A stretch of DNA of 10,716 nucleotides from Candidatus Methanofastidiosum methylothiophilum (GCA_001587715.1 LNGC01000051.1:1-10716); one strand, 5' to 3'; shown: positions 1 to 10,576, counted from the stretch's first letter. The notes: a model not told the origin generated them from the letters alone. Made by a program: numbers and translations.

Positions 1-2
1 GG

Positions 3-815
3 TATGATTTAGTATTCCAACATAACAGGGAGTTTCTATTAAGTCCTAGGGGTCATGGTAAAACAATGTTTTTACCAAGGTCGGTTCTAGAACATGAAAC
101 CCTTTTTAATAAAAATTTTAATTCCCTAATTATTGGTAAAACATATAAACAAGCCAATAAAACTTTAAAAGTAGTTAAGACAGATTTAGAAGAAAATAAA
201 CTTATTTTAAGAGACTTTGGGGAAGAGCTAGATGAGTATGATTCAGTTGGGAATCAACTTTGGTATAATATAGATACTACTGACCAAATTTTAAGGGATG
301 CAACTGTAGAAGCTAATGGATTATTAGGGGATATTACAGGGGGTCATTTTAACCTTATTATCCTTGATGATATTATAGATGATGCAAATTGTCTAACCCC
401 AGATAGTAGAAGAAAAGTAATGGAATGGGTACAGGGTACAATTATTCCAATGCTTAAACCGGGAGGGTATATTTCTGGTATAGGAACTAGAAAGCATTAT
501 GATGATGCATACCAAGAGATGATAGACAGCCCCGGATGGTATGTTATTCAACAAAAAGCTATTCTCAAAATGCCCAAAAGTTTTGAATATGTTTATAAAA
601 CCATAGGTGGGCAGCAAATAGCAGTAGGAATTAAAAATGTAGTAGGGGAGTATAAAGTATTATGGCCCGATGTATGGTCATTAGAATTATTATTATTAGA
701 AAAGAAAACAATGGGGAGTATCTTATTTAATAGGGAATACAATAACGATACTTCCCAGATGAAGGGTAAGATATTAAAAGACTTCTGGCTGAATAAGTAT
801 GTAATAATGAAATAA
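3..815 (+). CDS. terL: Large terminase subunit, N-terminal ATPase domain. It is 5'-partial: the reading frame is open back to the window edge.
   Basis: Frame 0 has no stop between nt 3 and the annotated ATG at 66. The upstream translation reads YDLVFQHNREFLLSPRGHGKTMF, i.e. a Walker A P-loop (RGHGKT) lying before the annotated Met, so the true start is upstream of the window. The Walker B-like motif is FNLIILDDIIDD. The C-terminal stretch LWPDVWSLELLLLEKKTMGSILFNREY resembles the terminase ATPase-to-nuclease linker. Its position just ahead of the portal fits. Confidence 0.8.
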   Translation, partial: YDLVFQHNREFLLSPRGHGKTMFLPRSVLEHETLFNKNFNSLIIGKTYKQANKTLKVVKTDLEENKLILRDFGEELDEYDSVGNQLWYNIDTTDQILRDATVEANGLLGDITGGHFNLIILDDIIDDANCLTPDSRRKVMEWVQGTIIPMLKPGGYISGIGTRKHYDDAYQEMIDSPGWYVIQQKAILKMPKSFEYVYKTIGGQQIAVGIKNVVGEYKVLWPDVWSLELLLLEKKTMGSILFNREYNNDTSQMKGKILKDFWLNKYVIMK

Positions 816-1366
816 ATGCTACAGAGGATATTAAACTGGCACCCCCACTAGATTCTATGACTATATACCAAGGATGGGATTTAGCAATAAGAGAAAAAGA
901 AACATCTGATTATGTAGTATGTACTACCATAGGGGTAACTCCTAAAAATAAGATATATGTACTGGATTGGTTTAGGGATAGGATGGCATTCCCAGACCAA
1001 GTAAAACAGGTGAGAGAATTATATGATGAATTTAGACCTGAAAGAATTGCAATAGAAACTAATGCATATCAGTTAGCATTAAAGCAACAGGTTCTAACTG
1101 AAAGAATATTACCTATAAAAGAGATAGAGAATATTAAGAATAAAGTACAGAGAATAATTTTAAGTTCAGTGAATTATGAAAATGGGTTAGTGTATCTCCC
1201 AATAGACCACCCTTATTATAATGCATTTATGGATGAATATAGGACATTTGATGATGGAACTCACGATGATATGTTAGATAGTTTAGACATGGCGATGAGG
1301 TTAATATTAGAACCAAAAGGAATACCATTTAAACGAGGTTTAAGGAGTAAGGTACATGCAAGATAA
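797..1366 (+). CDS. terL: Large terminase subunit, C-terminal RNaseH-like nuclease domain. It lies in the -1 frame relative to the ATPase fragment; the annotated ORF starts at ATG 857, but the frame is open from 797.
   Basis: The translation (MTIYQGWDLA...YVVCTTIGV...IYVLDWFRDR...RIAIETNAYQ...DDGTHDDMLDSLDMA) matches the terminase nuclease-domain pattern: an Asp early in strand 1, a central acidic residue in IAIE, and a C-terminal HDD..D. There is no SD upstream of ATG 857. This frame is open back to 797 and overlaps the end of the ATPase ORF. Confidence 0.75.
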   Translation, partial: VCNNEINATEDIKLAPPLDSMTIYQGWDLAIREKETSDYVVCTTIGVTPKNKIYVLDWFRDRMAFPDQVKQVRELYDEFRPERIAIETNAYQLALKQQVLTERILPIKEIENIKNKVQRIILSSVNYENGLVYLPIDHPYYNAFMDEYRTFDDGTHDDMLDSLDMAMRLILEPKGIPFKRGLRSKVHAR

Positions 1367-2798
1367 ACTACCATTAGGGAGGGTTATGCCAGTAATGAGC
1401 ATTAACCCAGAAGAAAAATTAATGCGAATGTTAAGAAGGTATGACCCCAATTTCCAGTTTTTCCAGTTGCTGCAAATGGTAGATTATCCAGTAGCTAGTG
1501 ATTATGAACTATTTTTACATTACTTTAGGGGAGGGGCAGGGCCATTTATAGACTTATTTTTATACTGTGATTTAGGGGCGGACTGGACATTAAACCCAGT
1601 AGGATTCGATAGTGAGGAAGATGGGGAAGAAGCTGTAAGGTTAGTAGAGGAAGATTATTTTAGTGATAAAAGGATGAACTTTAGAAGGACAATGAATGAG
1701 ATAGGGGCATATTGTGAAATCCTAGGGAGAACTTGTTATGTAGAAACATTTAATCTAGCAGAGGATTATTTCTATGATAAAAATATGAAAGTAACCGGAC
1801 TAGATGCAATAAACCCAATGGTACTAAATGAGGAAAGTATTAAAAAGGCATTAGCAGACACCACTGGAACAGTACCCTTTAAGCAGGAAGGAGTTACAAC
1901 AGATGGAAAATATGTAGCGATTCCATTTGAACAGGAAAGAGTTTTTTATTTTACTAAAAATATTGTGCCAAAATATAGTCCGGTAGGAAATTCAGAACTA
2001 CAAAGGTGTGTAACTGACCTTAGAACCCTAGCAAGATTCCCACACTATAGGATGAAGATAGGTAAAAAATATTCAGAACTATTTAGGGTAATTCAGATTA
2101 ACACGGAGAAACTAAAGGAAACTGGTATGGGGGAAACTATAACTGAAAGTACAGAAGAAGCCCAAAAATACTTAGATGAGACAGCAGAATTTTATAGAGA
2201 CCAAGAGGATAAAGGGGGAACTGTAGCTGTATTTGATTGGGAAACATTAATAGAAAGTTCATGGGCAGGTAAGGAAGTTAAGTTTAGTGAAATAGAAAGG
2301 GATACAGTGCAAAGTATAGGGTTAAAGTTGGGAGTTCCAATGGAACTTATGACCTATGCTGCTGATGCTATGAACAGGGCAACACTCTTAGGGTTACTGG
2401 ATACATTTGTATCTAAAAGGGAGAAGGGGACTAGGAAATGGTTATACACTCCCATAATACAAAATACAGCCAATAAGATTTTAAGAATAAATGATATACT
2501 GGATGGACATTTAGAAGTTAAGTATAATCCATTCTTATCTAAAAACTTAGTGGAAGTTGCAGATATACTAAGTAAGTTATACCCAACAGGGGCAATAACC
2601 AAACCAGAAATAAGAAAACCATTTGACTTTTTACCAAAAAGATTAGATTTAGGAGGGGAAGAATGGGAAGAAGCAGGAATGGACCCCAAGCCAAATCCTC
2701 AAGCAAAAATTAATCCAGTAGAATTAGCAGAAGAAGGGGAAGGAATTGCAGAAGTTGCTAAAGAAATGCTACAGAAAGGATTAATTAACTTATTATAG
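1356..2798 (+). CDS. Putative portal protein (480 aa)
   Basis: It directly follows terL with an 11-nt overlap. An AAGGAG SD lies 7 nt upstream of the ATG. Its size and its place in the canonical terL-portal-MuF-protease/scaffold-MCP order support the call. I did not recognise a diagnostic portal motif by eye. Confidence 0.55.
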   Translation: MQDKLPLGRVMPVMSINPEEKLMRMLRRYDPNFQFFQLLQMVDYPVASDYELFLHYFRGGAGPFIDLFLYCDLGADWTLNPVGFDSEEDGEEAVRLVEEDYFSDKRMNFRRTMNEIGAYCEILGRTCYVETFNLAEDYFYDKNMKVTGLDAINPMVLNEESIKKALADTTGTVPFKQEGVTTDGKYVAIPFEQERVFYFTKNIVPKYSPVGNSELQRCVTDLRTLARFPHYRMKIGKKYSELFRVIQINTEKLKETGMGETITESTEEAQKYLDETAEFYRDQEDKGGTVAVFDWETLIESSWAGKEVKFSEIERDTVQSIGLKLGVPMELMTYAADAMNRATLLGLLDTFVSKREKGTRKWLYTPIIQNTANKILRINDILDGHLEVKYNPFLSKNLVEVADILSKLYPTGAITKPEIRKPFDFLPKRLDLGGEEWEEAGMDPKPNPQAKINPVELAEEGEGIAEVAKEMLQKGLINLL

Positions 2799-2809
2799 AG
2801 GTATAGATA

Positions 2810-3880
2810 ATGGAGAAAGTTGCAGAAGCTACAAGGGAGAAAGTAGCAATAGATGAAGCTCTGTTATGTTACCTTATAGAAAAATCTGGAATAAAAAATT
2901 TAGATGAATTTGAATTATGGGTAAAGGGAGAAGTAGAAATTAAGCCCAAAGTAGAACATGCCCATATTAAAAAAAGTAAAAAAATAAAAGTTGAATTTAA
3001 ACCAAACCCAAACTTAGGAGAAGCAGGGGCAACCAAGGAAGAATTAAACTATAGGCAAGTTCTTATTTTATACTTAAAACCAGTTTGGGATTCAGCTAAG
3101 AAAATAATTATAGAGAGCGATTTATCACTACAAGAAAAACATGTAGAGATAAATAAATTAATTGAAAATTTTATATCCAATGTTCAAAAGGTTGCACAAT
3201 CTACAGTAACAAGTAGGTATAATGCAGGGTATACCCGGATGGAAGGGTATGTAAAGAAAGCTAAATACAAAATACCTTCACGACCCAAAGAACAACCTAG
3301 ACTTGATACTTTACTCCTACAGCAAACTATGAATATAGAGGATATTGGATTAACATTAAGGGGTAAGTTAAGACAAATCCTAAATATAAAAGCAGTCCAA
3401 GATTTTTATGAACAAGGAAGAGAAGGAAAACCAGACCCGGAAAAAATAAAAAAAGCAGTTCCAAAACCTAATTGGACTGTATGTATGAAAAGAGTAGCTA
3501 AAGAACACCCTGAATGGTCAGAGGCAGAAGTTAAAAAATGGTGTGAAGTCTTTGCTTATGAGGAAGAAATTGATAAGGCAGTAGATGACAGTAAGAGAAG
3601 GGTTGATGCCATAGGAATGTTTGGATTTCTGGAATCAGATAAAGCAGGATACCTTCAAGCTGCATTATTATTATCAGTAGGAATTACAGAACTTACAATG
3701 AAAATTCCATGGGTAACTATGGGAGATGCTAATGTATGTTCAGACTGTTTAGCTAGGGAAGCAGAGGGGCCATATTATCCAGAAGATTACCCGGAAGACC
3801 AACACTATGGTGAAAGATGTGTACCCGGTGAACCTGTATTTTTCAAAGGAGTATTAGAGGATGTGTGGGATTATGCATAA
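2810..3880 (+). CDS. Putative minor head / head-morphogenesis protein (Mu F / SPP1 gp7-like)
   Basis: It sits downstream of the portal. The C-terminal region QHYGERCVPGEPV resembles the conserved H-x-N-C-R-C-x-x-x-P signature of Phage_Mu_F domains, and a nearby CSDC cysteine pair is present. SD is AGAGG. Confidence 0.45.
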   Translation: MEKVAEATREKVAIDEALLCYLIEKSGIKNLDEFELWVKGEVEIKPKVEHAHIKKSKKIKVEFKPNPNLGEAGATKEELNYRQVLILYLKPVWDSAKKIIIESDLSLQEKHVEINKLIENFISNVQKVAQSTVTSRYNAGYTRMEGYVKKAKYKIPSRPKEQPRLDTLLLQQTMNIEDIGLTLRGKLRQILNIKAVQDFYEQGREGKPDPEKIKKAVPKPNWTVCMKRVAKEHPEWSEAEVKKWCEVFAYEEEIDKAVDDSKRRVDAIGMFGFLESDKAGYLQAALLLSVGITELTMKIPWVTMGDANVCSDCLAREAEGPYYPEDYPEDQHYGERCVPGEPVFFKGVLEDVWDYA

Positions 3881-3995
3881 AGAAATAAGAGCTTATTGCA
3901 CAGCATGTAAAAGGGAAGTTAAGTTAGACCAGGTTAAGCCAAATATTATGAAGATTATTGGAACCTGTAAATGTGGAATGTTATTTAGGAAGTAA
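3873..3995 (+). CDS. Zinc-ribbon micro-protein of 40 aa (MHKEIRAYCTACKREVKLDQVKPNIMKIIGTCKCGMLFRK). It is absent from the supplied ORF track.
   Basis: The ATG at 3873 overlaps the stop of the preceding gene (ATGCATAA), suggesting coupling. The frame is clean to TAA at 3993-3995. It carries C-x2-C-x19-C-x-C, a classic four-Cys zinc-ribbon spacing. It fills the otherwise empty 3881-4014 gap and shares the orientation of the operon. Confidence 0.45.
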   Translation: MHKEIRAYCTACKREVKLDQVKPNIMKIIGTCKCGMLFRK

Positions 3996-5113: not shown

Positions 5114-5830
5114 ATGAAACAAAAAGGTAAAGAAAATGATACTCAGGGAGAAGATGAAAAAATGGGGTTACTAAAGAAAACCTTAAGTACCCTAAAAGAG
5201 GTTAAAGATGCATTAACTGGAGAGGAAGGGAACCCCGGTGAAGAAGGGAATCCTGGAGAGGAAGGGAACCCCGGTGAAGAAGGGAATCCTGGAGAGGAAG
5301 GAAACCTAGAAAACCCTGCAGAAGAAGATGGAGAAGGGGAAGAAGGGGAAGGTGAAACATTGAAACCAAAAGATGTAAAAAGTATCCTTAAAAGGATAGA
5401 TGCCCTAGAACAGAAAGACTATAATCAGGAAAAAATAATCAAAAAACAGGGAGAAACAATTAAAAAACAAAACAAAACAATTGAAACCCTACAATCAGAT
5501 AAAACAGAAAAAATCCACAAAGGATTAGTCAAAGAAGCCCTTACATGTTCCAAAAAACTCAATGATACAACTGTTACCGATGAAAAATCCTTAGAAAAAG
5601 CTGTAAGGAAAGAACTAGATATAGACAAAGAAAAAGAAGTTACCGATGCAGACATTAACACCTATGTAAAAGGACTAAAGATAGCAATGAAAAGGATACC
5701 CGATGGGTATGTACCAATAATAACAGATGAAACAGTCCAGAAAGAACAGGATAAAACCAAACAAAAAATCAAAAAAATGAGAGAAAATATGAGTAAACAT
5801 GGGGTAGTTGGGGCAGAGGAATCTGAATAA
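5114..5830 (+). CDS. Putative scaffolding protein (238 aa, highly charged, with an (EEGNPG)5 repeat)
   Basis: SD is TAGGAGG. The composition is extremely K/E-rich and coiled-coil-prone (KEVKDALTGEEG..., IIKKQGETIKKQNKTIETLQ). The gene lies between the protease and the capsid gene, which is typical scaffold position and composition. Confidence 0.6.
   Translation: MKQKGKENDTQGEDEKMGLLKKTLSTLKEVKDALTGEEGNPGEEGNPGEEGNPGEEGNPGEEGNLENPAEEDGEGEEGEGETLKPKDVKSILKRIDALEQKDYNQEKIIKKQGETIKKQNKTIETLQSDKTEKIHKGLVKEALTCSKKLNDTTVTDEKSLEKAVRKELDIDKEKEVTDADINTYVKGLKIAMKRIPDGYVPIITDETVQKEQDKTKQKIKKMRENMSKHGVVGAEESE
5221..5310 (+). repeat. In-frame tandem repeat. A 36-nt unit (gaggaagggaaccccggtgaagaagggaatcctgga) occurs twice perfectly, followed by a degenerate third copy. 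It encodes EEGNPG five times.
   Basis: Direct reading: 5221-5256 and 5257-5292 are identical; 5293-5310 diverges (gaggaaggaaacctagaa). Confidence 0.9.
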
Positions 5831-8215: not shown

Positions 8216-10576
8216 ATGACAATAACTGGTAGTGGAACCTCTGCTGACCCTTATATAATTTATACCCTAGATGATTTGGCATTAATAGGAACTAGTCCTT
8301 ATACTTTGAATAAATATTTTAAGTTAAATAATGATATTGATGCCAGTCCTACTCAAGACCCTAGTTATAATGGAGGGACAGGTTGGAATCCAATAGGGAA
8401 TAGCACCACTAAATTTAGTGGAAATTTTAATGGGAATAATAAAACCATATCAGGATTATTTATTAATAAACCTACAACCGACAATATAGGTTTATTTGGA
8501 TACACCACTACAGGATTTAGTATTTATAATCTTATTTTGGAAGTAGATATTACTGGACAGAATAATGTAGGGGGATTACTAGGGTATTATGATGAGGTAA
8601 GTAATAGTGATGGGGATAGGGTATGGGGAATAACAGTACATGGAGAAGTAACTGGGAATAACCAAGTAGGAGGAATTGTTGGGGTTAAAGCCCACTATGG
8701 GTATATTGATGATTGTTATTCTGATGCAGTGGTTTCCGGTGCAAACCAAGTAGGAGGGATATTTGGACAACTTTTAAACCTTGGTTATAGGGGAATTGTT
8801 AAGTATTGTGATTTTGATGGAGTAGTTAATATTTCCGGGAGTAGAGGGGGATTAATAGGGGGGGAAGCTAATCAAGATGTTACTTATTGTAATGCTTATG
8901 GAGAGTTAAATGCCTCAGCAACTAGTGATTATATAGGAGGAATAATAGGATATGATATTAGCGAAGATATTAGTTATTGCAATTGCTATTCTAATATAAC
9001 TGGTAGAAATTATGTTGGAGGAATAGTAGGAACTAAAACAAAATACAATGCAATTAGTTTCTGTAGGGCTTACGGAGTAATTACTGGTAATGAGAGGGTA
9101 GGGGGTATTGCAGGACACCATGGAACTAGGGGTTATGGAAGTACATTACAAGATTGTTATTTTAGGGGAGAAATAAATGCAACTGGAAATTATGTAGGAG
9201 GCATTGCAGGGAGTTGTAGTTGGTTAATTCAAAGATGTTTAGTATCAAGTGATACAGTAATTAACAGCCCTAATTCAAGTTATGTGGGGGGAATTGTTGG
9301 ATTAGGTAATCATGGCCCGATTAATAATTGTATAAACCTTATAGATATTAATGGGATAGATTATGTGGGGGGCATTGCAGGGAAGAAGGAATTATATGAT
9401 AGTTATGTGGAAGTTCAAAACTATGGAAACATTACCGGAAGGGATTATGTAGGGGGAATTACTGGATACTTTTCTAATTATGATTATGCCCAAGACCACA
9501 AACAATGTATAAACTATGGAAACATTACTGGAAGGAATTATGTAGGGGGAATAGCAGGTAGATGTGACTGTAGGAATTGGGAATGTTATAATAGGGGAAA
9601 AGTATCTGGGCAAAATAATGTAGGGGGAATATTTGGGCATTTATATTCAAAATATATAAGTAGAGCATATAATACAGGGCAGGTTATAGGAACAGGAACA
9701 GGAATAGGGGGATTAGTTGGAAGCATTAGTGGGAGTGGGGGGGATACAAATAGTTTCTGGGATGTTGAAACTAGTGGAATAGCTATAAGTGCAAGGGGTA
9801 CAGGAAAGACTACAGCAGAAATGAAAACCCAATCAACATATACAGGATGGGATTTCACGACCCCAGTATGGTTAATTAACCCTATTTTCAATGATGGTTA
9901 TCCTTATTTAAATATTCCTAAATTTATTAGAGTTTTATCCCCAAATGGGATTACTTCTACAGAAGGATTAGGGATTCCTCTAATCAGAATAACAGTCATA
10001 CATATTATGGCAAATGGAGTTCCTTCTACTCTTCTATTTGGAATACCTAAACTTTCTGCCATACTCAGAATACAGGGCATAGATGGAACTATACAGCTAG
10101 GAATTTTTAAAACCTTAATGGAAGTTGCACTCAAAGGGAAAGGAATTAAACTATTAGATTTTGGTACTTTAAAAACATTGATGGAAGTAAGGGTAGTAGA
10201 TGGGGGAATCCCTAGTAGTATTGAACTAGGAATCCCAATGGCAATGTATCAGATAAGCCCAGAGGGAATAGACAATAGTATCACTATGGGAACTATTACA
10301 TTAATCTGGGATGAATTTATTAGACCTAATGGATTAGATTCATTTATTAGTTTTGGGGAATTAGTAACTTATATTAGATATTGGAAGGAAAATATTGAGT
10401 TTACATTAAAAGGAAGTAAAACTAATTTTGACCAAGTAGGGGGGGATATTAGATTTTTAATAGAAACCCCTAGTACAGAATTTGAACTTAAAAAACCTAC
10501 TACCCGGTTTGAATTAATACAACCAAGGGCTGGAACTAAGTTAAAATCTCAGACAATTTTTGAATTAAGAAAATAG
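8216..10576 (+). CDS. GLUG-repeat fibre or adhesin-like protein (786 aa), a candidate receptor-binding protein
   Basis: The N-terminal module GSGTSADPYIIYTLDDLALIG...YFKLNNDIDAS...WNPIGN...FSGNFNGNNKTISGLFINKPTTDNIGLFG is the typical head of GLUG-domain surface proteins. It carries 14 repeats of about 29 aa built on N-x-V-G-G-(I/L)-x-G (residues about 116-510), the closing motif TYTGWDFTTPVWLI...GYPYL, then about 7 repeats of about 22 aa (NG-I-x-S-x4-G-I-P-x6-I) and three FEL mini-repeats at the end. No HExxH or other protease motif was found. Confidence 0.85.
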   Translation: MTITGSGTSADPYIIYTLDDLALIGTSPYTLNKYFKLNNDIDASPTQDPSYNGGTGWNPIGNSTTKFSGNFNGNNKTISGLFINKPTTDNIGLFGYTTTGFSIYNLILEVDITGQNNVGGLLGYYDEVSNSDGDRVWGITVHGEVTGNNQVGGIVGVKAHYGYIDDCYSDAVVSGANQVGGIFGQLLNLGYRGIVKYCDFDGVVNISGSRGGLIGGEANQDVTYCNAYGELNASATSDYIGGIIGYDISEDISYCNCYSNITGRNYVGGIVGTKTKYNAISFCRAYGVITGNERVGGIAGHHGTRGYGSTLQDCYFRGEINATGNYVGGIAGSCSWLIQRCLVSSDTVINSPNSSYVGGIVGLGNHGPINNCINLIDINGIDYVGGIAGKKELYDSYVEVQNYGNITGRDYVGGITGYFSNYDYAQDHKQCINYGNITGRNYVGGIAGRCDCRNWECYNRGKVSGQNNVGGIFGHLYSKYISRAYNTGQVIGTGTGIGGLVGSISGSGGDTNSFWDVETSGIAISARGTGKTTAEMKTQSTYTGWDFTTPVWLINPIFNDGYPYLNIPKFIRVLSPNGITSTEGLGIPLIRITVIHIMANGVPSTLLFGIPKLSAILRIQGIDGTIQLGIFKTLMEVALKGKGIKLLDFGTLKTLMEVRVVDGGIPSSIELGIPMAMYQISPEGIDNSITMGTITLIWDEFIRPNGLDSFISFGELVTYIRYWKENIEFTLKGSKTNFDQVGGDIRFLIETPSTEFELKKPTTRFELIQPRAGTKLKSQTIFELRK
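8561..9745 (+). repeat. Array of 14 GLUG-type coding repeats, with period about 81-99 nt
   Basis: The VGG(I/L) cores fall at residues 118, 151, 179, 211, 240, 267, 295, 327, 357, 384, 412, 443, 469 and 497 of the 8216 ORF. Near-identical DNA copies exist, e.g. 9424-9461 versus 9524-9561 (ctatggaaacattac[c/t]ggaagg[g/a]attatgtagggggaat). Confidence 0.85.
9944..10396 (+). repeat. C-terminal array of about 7 coding repeats of about 22 aa (NGITSTEGLGIPLIRITVIHIMA, NGVPSTLLFGIPKLSAILRIQGI, DGTIQLGIFKTLMEV..., GGIPSSIELGIPMAMYQISPE, GIDNSITMGTITLIWDEFIRP, NGLDSFISFGELVTYIRYWKE)
   Basis: Read from the translation. The pair FKTLMEVALKGKGI / LKTLMEVRVVDGGI is also visible as similar DNA at about 10108-10150 and 10168-10210. 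Confidence 0.6.

Follow-up and report, generated by a model that had tools for sequence, protein, structure and literature searches.

The window analyzed here is the whole of a 10,716-bp GenBank contig from a MAG labeled Candidatus Methanofastidiosum methylothiophilum. It is AT-rich (35.5% GC), carries every gene on the plus strand, and is the head-morphogenesis module of a head-tailed virus (Table 1). The terminase large subunit gene (TerL) is broken into two frames, and all the other genes of the contig are intact. The 480-aa product of the gene that follows TerL is read as the portal on the basis of gene position and its UniRef name. It had no Pfam or PHROG match, and in a cluster look-up the protein was found solely in the NCBI MAG record. 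A blastn search with window positions 1 to 2800 gave no match among 50,697 phage records.

Table 1. Features of the 10,716-nucleotide window, with positions counted from its first letter
Feature	Position	Strand	Remarks
TerL	3-1366	+	Broken into two frames; first 33 codons removed by the contig end
TerL ATPase-domain frame	3-815	+	Begins at residue 34 of the intact protein; ends KYVI-MK, TAA 813-815
Zone open in both frames	797-815	+	19 nt; bounded by stops TAA 794-796 (frame 2) and TAA 813-815 (frame 0)
Lesion	806-807	+	AA vs AAA in relatives; GTAAT-AATGAA vs GTAATAAATGAA
TerL nuclease-side frame 2	797-1366	+	Remaining part of the linker plus the whole RNase H-like nuclease domain
Portal-position gene, 480 aa	1356-2798	+	Overlaps the TerL stop; AGGAG SD; intact, length as in relatives
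356-aa protein	after portal-position gene	+	
Prohead protease	after 356-aa gene	+	Peptidase_S78
Repeat-bearing acidic 238-aa protein	5114-5830	+	Between the protease and capsid genes
150-aa protein	after 238-aa gene	+	
Major capsid protein, HK97/encapsulin-like	after 150-aa gene	+	Linocin_M18, phrog_264
Two small proteins	between capsid gene and 786-aa gene	+	
786-aa GLUG-motif protein	8216-10576	+	

Several features of the genes downstream of TerL were observed. The gene for the 238-aa protein contains an 18/36-nt tandem repeat at 5217 to 5306 that encodes GEEGNP five times; two related contigs from Logan, L001 and L024, both stop near it, which points to it as a probable cause of breaks in short-read assemblies. 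A 44-aa ORF with a zinc-ribbon-like CxxC…CxC pattern (3861 to 3995) overlaps the 3' end of the gene for the 356-aa protein. Some relatives have it annotated as a product of 40 aa (L034), and its SNPs relative to L001 comprise two non-synonymous and no synonymous changes. The 786-aa GLUG protein is rich in GGI/VxG repeats, hypervariable and tail-fibre-like, and is likely to be a receptor-binding or adhesin-like diversity hotspot. Between positions 5272 and 10716, the window is 91.8% identical to L024 to L026, with 47 gaps.

The first TerL frame (frame 0, with codons starting where position mod 3 = 0) reads ...LWPDVWSLELLLLEKKTMGSILFNREYNNDTSQMKGKILKDFWLNKYVIMK and has the tail …KDFWLNKYVIMK before its stop. 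It contains the Walker A motif SPRGHGKT (42 to 65), the Walker B acidic pair D155/D156 (LIILDD, 366 to 371), which is invariant, and the coupling motif IGTRKH, of which T195, K197 and H198 are invariant across 32 homologues. The ATPase ORF matched phrog_38 (terminase large subunit) with an E value of 8.5e-44, and the Pfam ATPase model was below threshold on the TerL fragment of the window. The second frame (frame 2), which is -1 relative to frame 0, reads VCNNEINATEDIKLAPPLDSMTIYQGWDLA... up to 1366. Its nuclease domain matched Pfam Terminase_6C (PF17289; E=3.2e-9, 37.4 bits against a cut-off of 22.6), and the nuclease catalytic residues D326 (878 to 880), E385 (1055 to 1057), D456 (1268 to 1270) and D459 (1277 to 1279) are all present and invariant.

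In GenBank, these frames are represented by two genes. AMQ22_01224 (KYC51663.1, 249 aa, window 66 to 815) starts at an internal ATG at 66, downstream of Walker A, and has the UniRef name "Methyltransferase domain protein." AMQ22_01225 (KYC51664.1, 169 aa, "Terminase-like family protein," window 857 to 1366) starts at ATG 857, which corresponds to Met317 of the unbroken protein, and in the intact proteins nothing sets this position apart from other conserved hydrophobic ones. This ATG is preceded by taaactggcacccccactagattct, with no GGAG-type or SD-like motif in the 25 nt before it. Of the window's 10 remaining gene starts, 8 have an SD motif (GGAG, AGGAG, GGAGG or GAGGT) within about 12 nt, and those at 8216 and 2810 have partial motifs only. 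A sequence-only reading of this DNA had ended the ATPase ORF at TAA 813-815, opened the nuclease frame at 797 after a -1 shift, and seen no SD before ATG 857, and these observations were all borne out. What is annotated as the two genes AMQ22_01224 and AMQ22_01225 is one TerL gene that a frameshift has divided in two, and the internal start and the methyltransferase name of AMQ22_01224 are annotation errors.

Comparison with close relatives showed that one base is lost from codon 302 (ATA-AAT to ATA-AT) at window 806-807. A conceptual fusion of the two frames was used as the query against 5.8 billion protein clusters, and it retrieved P0001, a single ORF of 487 aa with 99% identity over 100% of the query that reads KDFWLNKYVINEINATEDIK. 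Five independent Logan contigs that are approximately 99% identical to the window (L001 to L004 and L033, from runs SRR12814718, -19, -22, -29 and -30) read GTAATAAATGAA at the lesion. Four of them (L001 to L004) encode one 487-aa TerL, and L033, truncated by its contig, encodes a 406-aa product that extends across the junction. In an exact-word check, the intact word TATGTAATAAATGAAATAAATGC was present in all five of these contigs and the deleted word only in the window; in the DNA alignment, the relatives have GTAATAAATGAAATAAATG and the window GTAAT-AATGAAATAAATG. The word for the two-A allele is GTAATAATGAA, and the three-base alternatives are GTAATAAATGAA or GTAATACATGAA. A pattern admitting both alleles (…GTAATAA N{0,1} TGAAATAAATG…) had no match in the genome, viral and metagenome contig collections, and allele counts were therefore taken from protein look-ups. 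In a collection of 15 billion proteins, the 249-aa and 169-aa fragments came from this one NCBI contig only.

Relative to L001 and L002, the window was 99.12% identical over 5247 bases, with 45 substitutions and a single gap, which is the lesion. Between 5272 and 8304 it was 99.6% identical to L027 with no gaps, and the alignments to L027 to L031 (99.4 to 99.7%) were all gapless. The lesion at 806-807 is the only indel in the approximately 8.3 kb that is comparable with independent contigs. Codon 302 itself is AAT (Asn) in L001 to L004 and L033 and CAT (His) in L032 and L023. L032 (P0122, 508 aa, run SRR28820819) has ATT CAT at the junction and an intact single ORF, and the 83% relative P0002 (IMG/VR contig L023) has ATA-CAT at the junction codons and is likewise intact. 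At the 5' end of the contig, window positions 1 to 50 hold 12 of the 45 substitutions relative to L001. They encode DLVFQ, like P0002, where L001 encodes DLLFS, and the pattern suggests either a mosaic boundary left by recombination or an assembly broken by a mixture of strains.

More distant homologues were also uninterrupted. All 32 that were aligned, down to 34% identity, were continuous through the junction and none was split there. The junction lies just after the invariant Trp W295 and the nearly invariant Tyr Y299, and opens a length-variable segment. Nearly all of the 120 matches listed were 450 to 605 aa long, and none of those listed was split at the linker. Several short matches were considered as split relatives and rejected: P0041, P0049, P0023, P0024 and P0032 are cut short at contig ends and, as far as they include the junction, run through it without interruption (the contigs of P0041 and P0049 measure about 1.1 kb), and P0056, a candidate for a linker-split relative, is a rearranged fusion. 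TerL was frameshifted in 5 of 18 related archaeal and bacterial MAG loci (L014, L015, L017, L019 and L021). These loci, mostly Methanobacteriaceae "MFD" MAGs, have one to five frameshifts per gene. The breaks were scattered (at about residues 115, 190, 230 and 327; the L019 and L021 genes each have several), and this looks like the product of error-prone assemblies, sequencing error or decayed proviruses and not like a recurrent split. Such copies provide a useful background rate when single frameshifts in such data are judged.

The genomic relatives of this TerL (46 to 56% identity) are mostly found in Methanobacteriaceae MAGs (Methanobacterium, Methanobrevibacter and Ca. Methanoflexus), and the assignment of Methanofastidiosum as the host of the viral contig, which derives from MAG binning, is therefore only putative. 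A literature search for viruses of Methanofastidiosum found nothing specific. Directly upstream of TerS/TerL, the close relative L032 (3773 to 6797, run SRR28820819) encodes a TET-associated glycosyltransferase (PF20691, E=3e-35), a UDP-glucose/GDP-mannose dehydrogenase and an NAD-dependent epimerase, and these three genes may form an archaeal viral module for the sugar hypermodification of DNA. In L001 the same upstream position is occupied by other genes, one of which encodes a radical-SAM-like protein.

To place the break in the protein, an AlphaFold2 model (pLDDT 86.4, pTM 0.78) was built on the 32-sequence alignment for P0001, the intact protein with 99% identity, and not for the split product. 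In this model, the last ATPase-side strand comprises residues 297 to 300 (KYVI) and the first nuclease strand residues 320 to 326 (IYQGWDL). The intervening residues 301 to 319 are without a long secondary-structure element and are read as the predicted interdomain linker, and the break at residue 301/302 is at its start. Foldseek of the model against the PDB matched the PhiV-1 terminase (8dgc_E, 2.7e-20), T4 gp17 (3cpe, 1.8e-14), D6E (4.4e-13) and HK97 (1.5e-12), and Sf6 was also matched. The linker accounts for 3.9% of the gene length and 4.9% of the homopolymer runs of 3 or more. A random indel is expected to hit it about 4 to 5% of the time, and with a single event the position is unremarkable.

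Among the closest known systems is the single-chain TerL of the Terminase_6 type (PF03237/PF17289; phrog_38), for which the structures of T4 gp17, D6E, HK97 and Sf6 gp2 have been solved. Like it, the gene in the window encodes Walker A and B motifs, a GTRKH coupling motif and a nuclease of the RNase H-like type whose acidic residues are D/E/D; the predicted fold of P0001 matches the TerL structures, and the gene order is that of single-chain TerL viruses (TerS, TerL, portal, protease and capsid). It differs in the one-base deletion that breaks the frame, in this contig only, and in the 33 codons removed by the contig end. Since the two domains lie on one polypeptide in all relatives and the frame is broken in the window, the gene is a disrupted member of the TerL family and not a variant architecture.

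The sequence-only reading had offered three explanations for the frame change, namely, a sequencing or assembly indel, an inactivating mutation in a decaying prophage, and a genuine two-piece or recoded terminase, and had kept the last of these in view because the break falls between the domains. That position was upheld by the model; as an argument it has little weight, given the 4 to 5% expected by chance. Programmed recoding, by a ribosomal -1 shift within 797 to 815 or by RNA polymerase slippage, would restore a full-length TerL, and a -1 shift within the A-rich 19-nt overlap would indeed give a near-normal protein. The overlap had been described as free of X-XXY-YYZ slippery heptamers, and this was confirmed, with none of the 22 in-frame heptamers in 749 to 818 qualifying. 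The downstream RNA (808 to 900, 93 nt) folded at -11.7 kcal/mol, no better than shuffled sequences (mean -11.18, z = -0.19, with 74 of 200 shuffles folding as well), and no Rfam family, introns included, matched anywhere in the window. Transcriptional slippage requires homopolymers longer than AAA or AAAA, and it was rejected because the longest runs near the overlap are AAA at 810-812, AAA at 814-816 and, upstream, AAAA at 776-779. The two-frame arrangement is absent in every relative, including those with 99% identity, and there is therefore no conserved arrangement for selection to act on. The lambda G/GT tail assembly chaperone genes likewise consist of two overlapping ORFs, the downstream one being shifted by -1. 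Sites of this type have a slippery sequence and a position conserved across many phages, according to the part of PMC2147016 that cites Xu et al. 2004; in this contig, by contrast, the slippery site, the RNA structure and the conservation are all absent. Programmed recoding is effectively refuted by the comparative data, and we give it next to no chance. Re-initiation at ATG 816 was rejected because this codon is in frame 0 and followed by a stop after 11 codons. The insertion of an intron, intein or HEG was likewise rejected. The BtI1 terminase gene is interrupted by an intein (PMC2147016), and TerL genes interrupted by such elements share with the present one a coding sequence annotated in two pieces; here, unlike in those genes, the halves abut with nothing inserted and one base missing, and there is no Rfam intron.

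A natural two-piece TerL would entail a real and tolerated deletion, after which an ATPase ending with residue 301 plus MK and a nuclease beginning at Met317 would be made separately and work in trans. If true, a natural two-piece terminase would have been caught at its origin, in a viable virus whose nuclease is initiated at the SD-less ATG 857, and a functional enzyme of this kind would deserve attention from the standpoint of packaging-motor mechanics. The break at the start of a flexible linker is in its favor, as are the completeness of each fragment as a domain with all catalytic residues intact, the in-frame ATG ahead of the first nuclease strand, and the existence of fragment-type TerL families in PHROGs (phrog_4758 and phrog_5573). 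These families, named "terminase large subunit," are ATPase-only (243-position profile) or C-terminal-only from about residue 231 (250-position profile), so that phage records evidently hold enough partial annotations of TerL for these to make up families of their own. The comparative evidence is against a two-piece enzyme: neither the 32 aligned homologues nor the 120 matches listed include one that is split at this point, the frameshifted MAG relatives break at other, scattered positions, and P0041, P0049 and P0056 are truncations or a rearrangement. Also against it, ATG 857 lacks the SD that most other genes of the window have, Met317 is of ordinary character, and the linker position carries its 4 to 5% chance expectation. 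When T4 gp17 was split at the linker, the ATPase and nuclease activities were kept and DNA translocation was completely abolished (PMC3012670). The break in the window resembles that split in cutting at a flexible linker and leaving two complete domains, and differs in that the T4 split was engineered (PMC3012670). Because that split loses translocation, a two-piece enzyme here is, by analogy, not expected to work, and a natural split of the T4 gp17 kind would be non-functional. We regard a working two-piece TerL as having a very slim chance. One added A gives an ORF of about 490 aa, and all relatives examined, close and distant, have a single ORF that is intact across the junction, an outcome that the sequence-only reading had named, for close relatives, as arguing for pseudogenisation or error; a designed two-piece or recoded terminase, the two taken together, is not supported, nor was the split conserved in related elements.

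The lesion is private to this contig, its relatives are all one-piece, and signals for recoding or re-initiation are absent. We conclude, with a probability of roughly 0.92 to 0.95, that it is an unprogrammed deletion of one base peculiar to this contig, be it a mutation or an artefact. The loss of a single base from a short run of A supports the two simpler explanations that had been offered, and it resembles the frameshifts of defective proviruses and of draft or MAG records in being a short-A-run indel in one record with intact orthologues in relatives. Solely the coincidence of the break with the interdomain linker sets it apart from them.

Whether the base is missing from the DNA or only from the MAG consensus is more evenly poised. 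We put the chance of a real deletion, that is, a recent and private loss-of-function mutation in an otherwise intact provirus copy, at about even, and that of an artefact a little below even. As an artefact, the virus in the sample would have a normal codon (AAA or ACA-type) and the base would be missing only in the consensus, for example because two co-occurring strain variants were collapsed at a polymorphic position. This would account for an allele seen in just one contig, of a draft MAG, when about 15 billion proteins were covered and five near-identical contigs are intact, and for its being the sole indel in about 8.3 kb. The missing base is, moreover, the first base of a strain-variable codon (AAT in L001, CAT in L032 and L023), and both contig ends lie in strain-variable sequence (the 12 SNPs in positions 1 to 50 and, near the 3' end, the hypervariable 786-aa gene). 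These variable ends suggest that the sample held a mixture of strains, from which a consensus error could have arisen. The other genes are all intact with no further sign of decay. The substitutions between the window and L001 comprise 23 synonymous and 22 non-synonymous changes; synonymous changes are therefore enriched over random, and the lineage has been under purifying selection until recently, a pattern that counts for a recent mutation as well as for an artefact. Frameshifts in the draft sequence of the BtI1 prophage were earlier judged to be errors (PMC2147016).

Independent contigs could be compared with the window over 8279 bases, which include 80 homopolymers at least 5 bases long, 29 of them reaching 6 or more and the longest 9; all are of the same length in the window and in those contigs. 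Since the homopolymers, the 9-mer included, all agree and the sole indel is in a run of only 3 bases, a homopolymer-miscalling platform is unlikely. De Bruijn short-read assemblies also seldom create single-base indels, which further argues against an artefact. By a narrow margin, we adopt the reading that the base is absent from the DNA and not just from the assembly. Relatives of this TerL lineage are integrated in Methanobacteriaceae chromosomes (contigs of 0.35 to 2.5 Mb), and these integrated relatives, together with the binning of the contig with an archaeal MAG, fit a provirus copy, in which a dead packaging gene can persist. Because the contig carries neither an integration junction nor a host gene, we infer the provirus status from these relationships only.

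If the deletion is real, the following sequence of events may be proposed. One A would have been lost from codon 302 of an ordinary one-piece TerL gene in a head-tailed archaeal virus or provirus. Translation of the ATPase would then meet TAA two codons later (…KYVI-MK-stop), and the nuclease domain would be stranded in the -1 frame, with neither a ribosome-binding site nor a recoding signal. By analogy with the split T4 enzyme, the two TerL fragments would probably be non-functional together, and the provirus copy would be unable to package DNA.

The gene described here is an ordinary TerL gene with a frameshift in this copy, and its biology is already known. The main use of the finding is the correction of the annotation of AMQ22_01224 and AMQ22_01225, and it has little biological import. 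Should the deletion be real, this provirus copy would be packaging-dead, which would represent a routine step in provirus decay.
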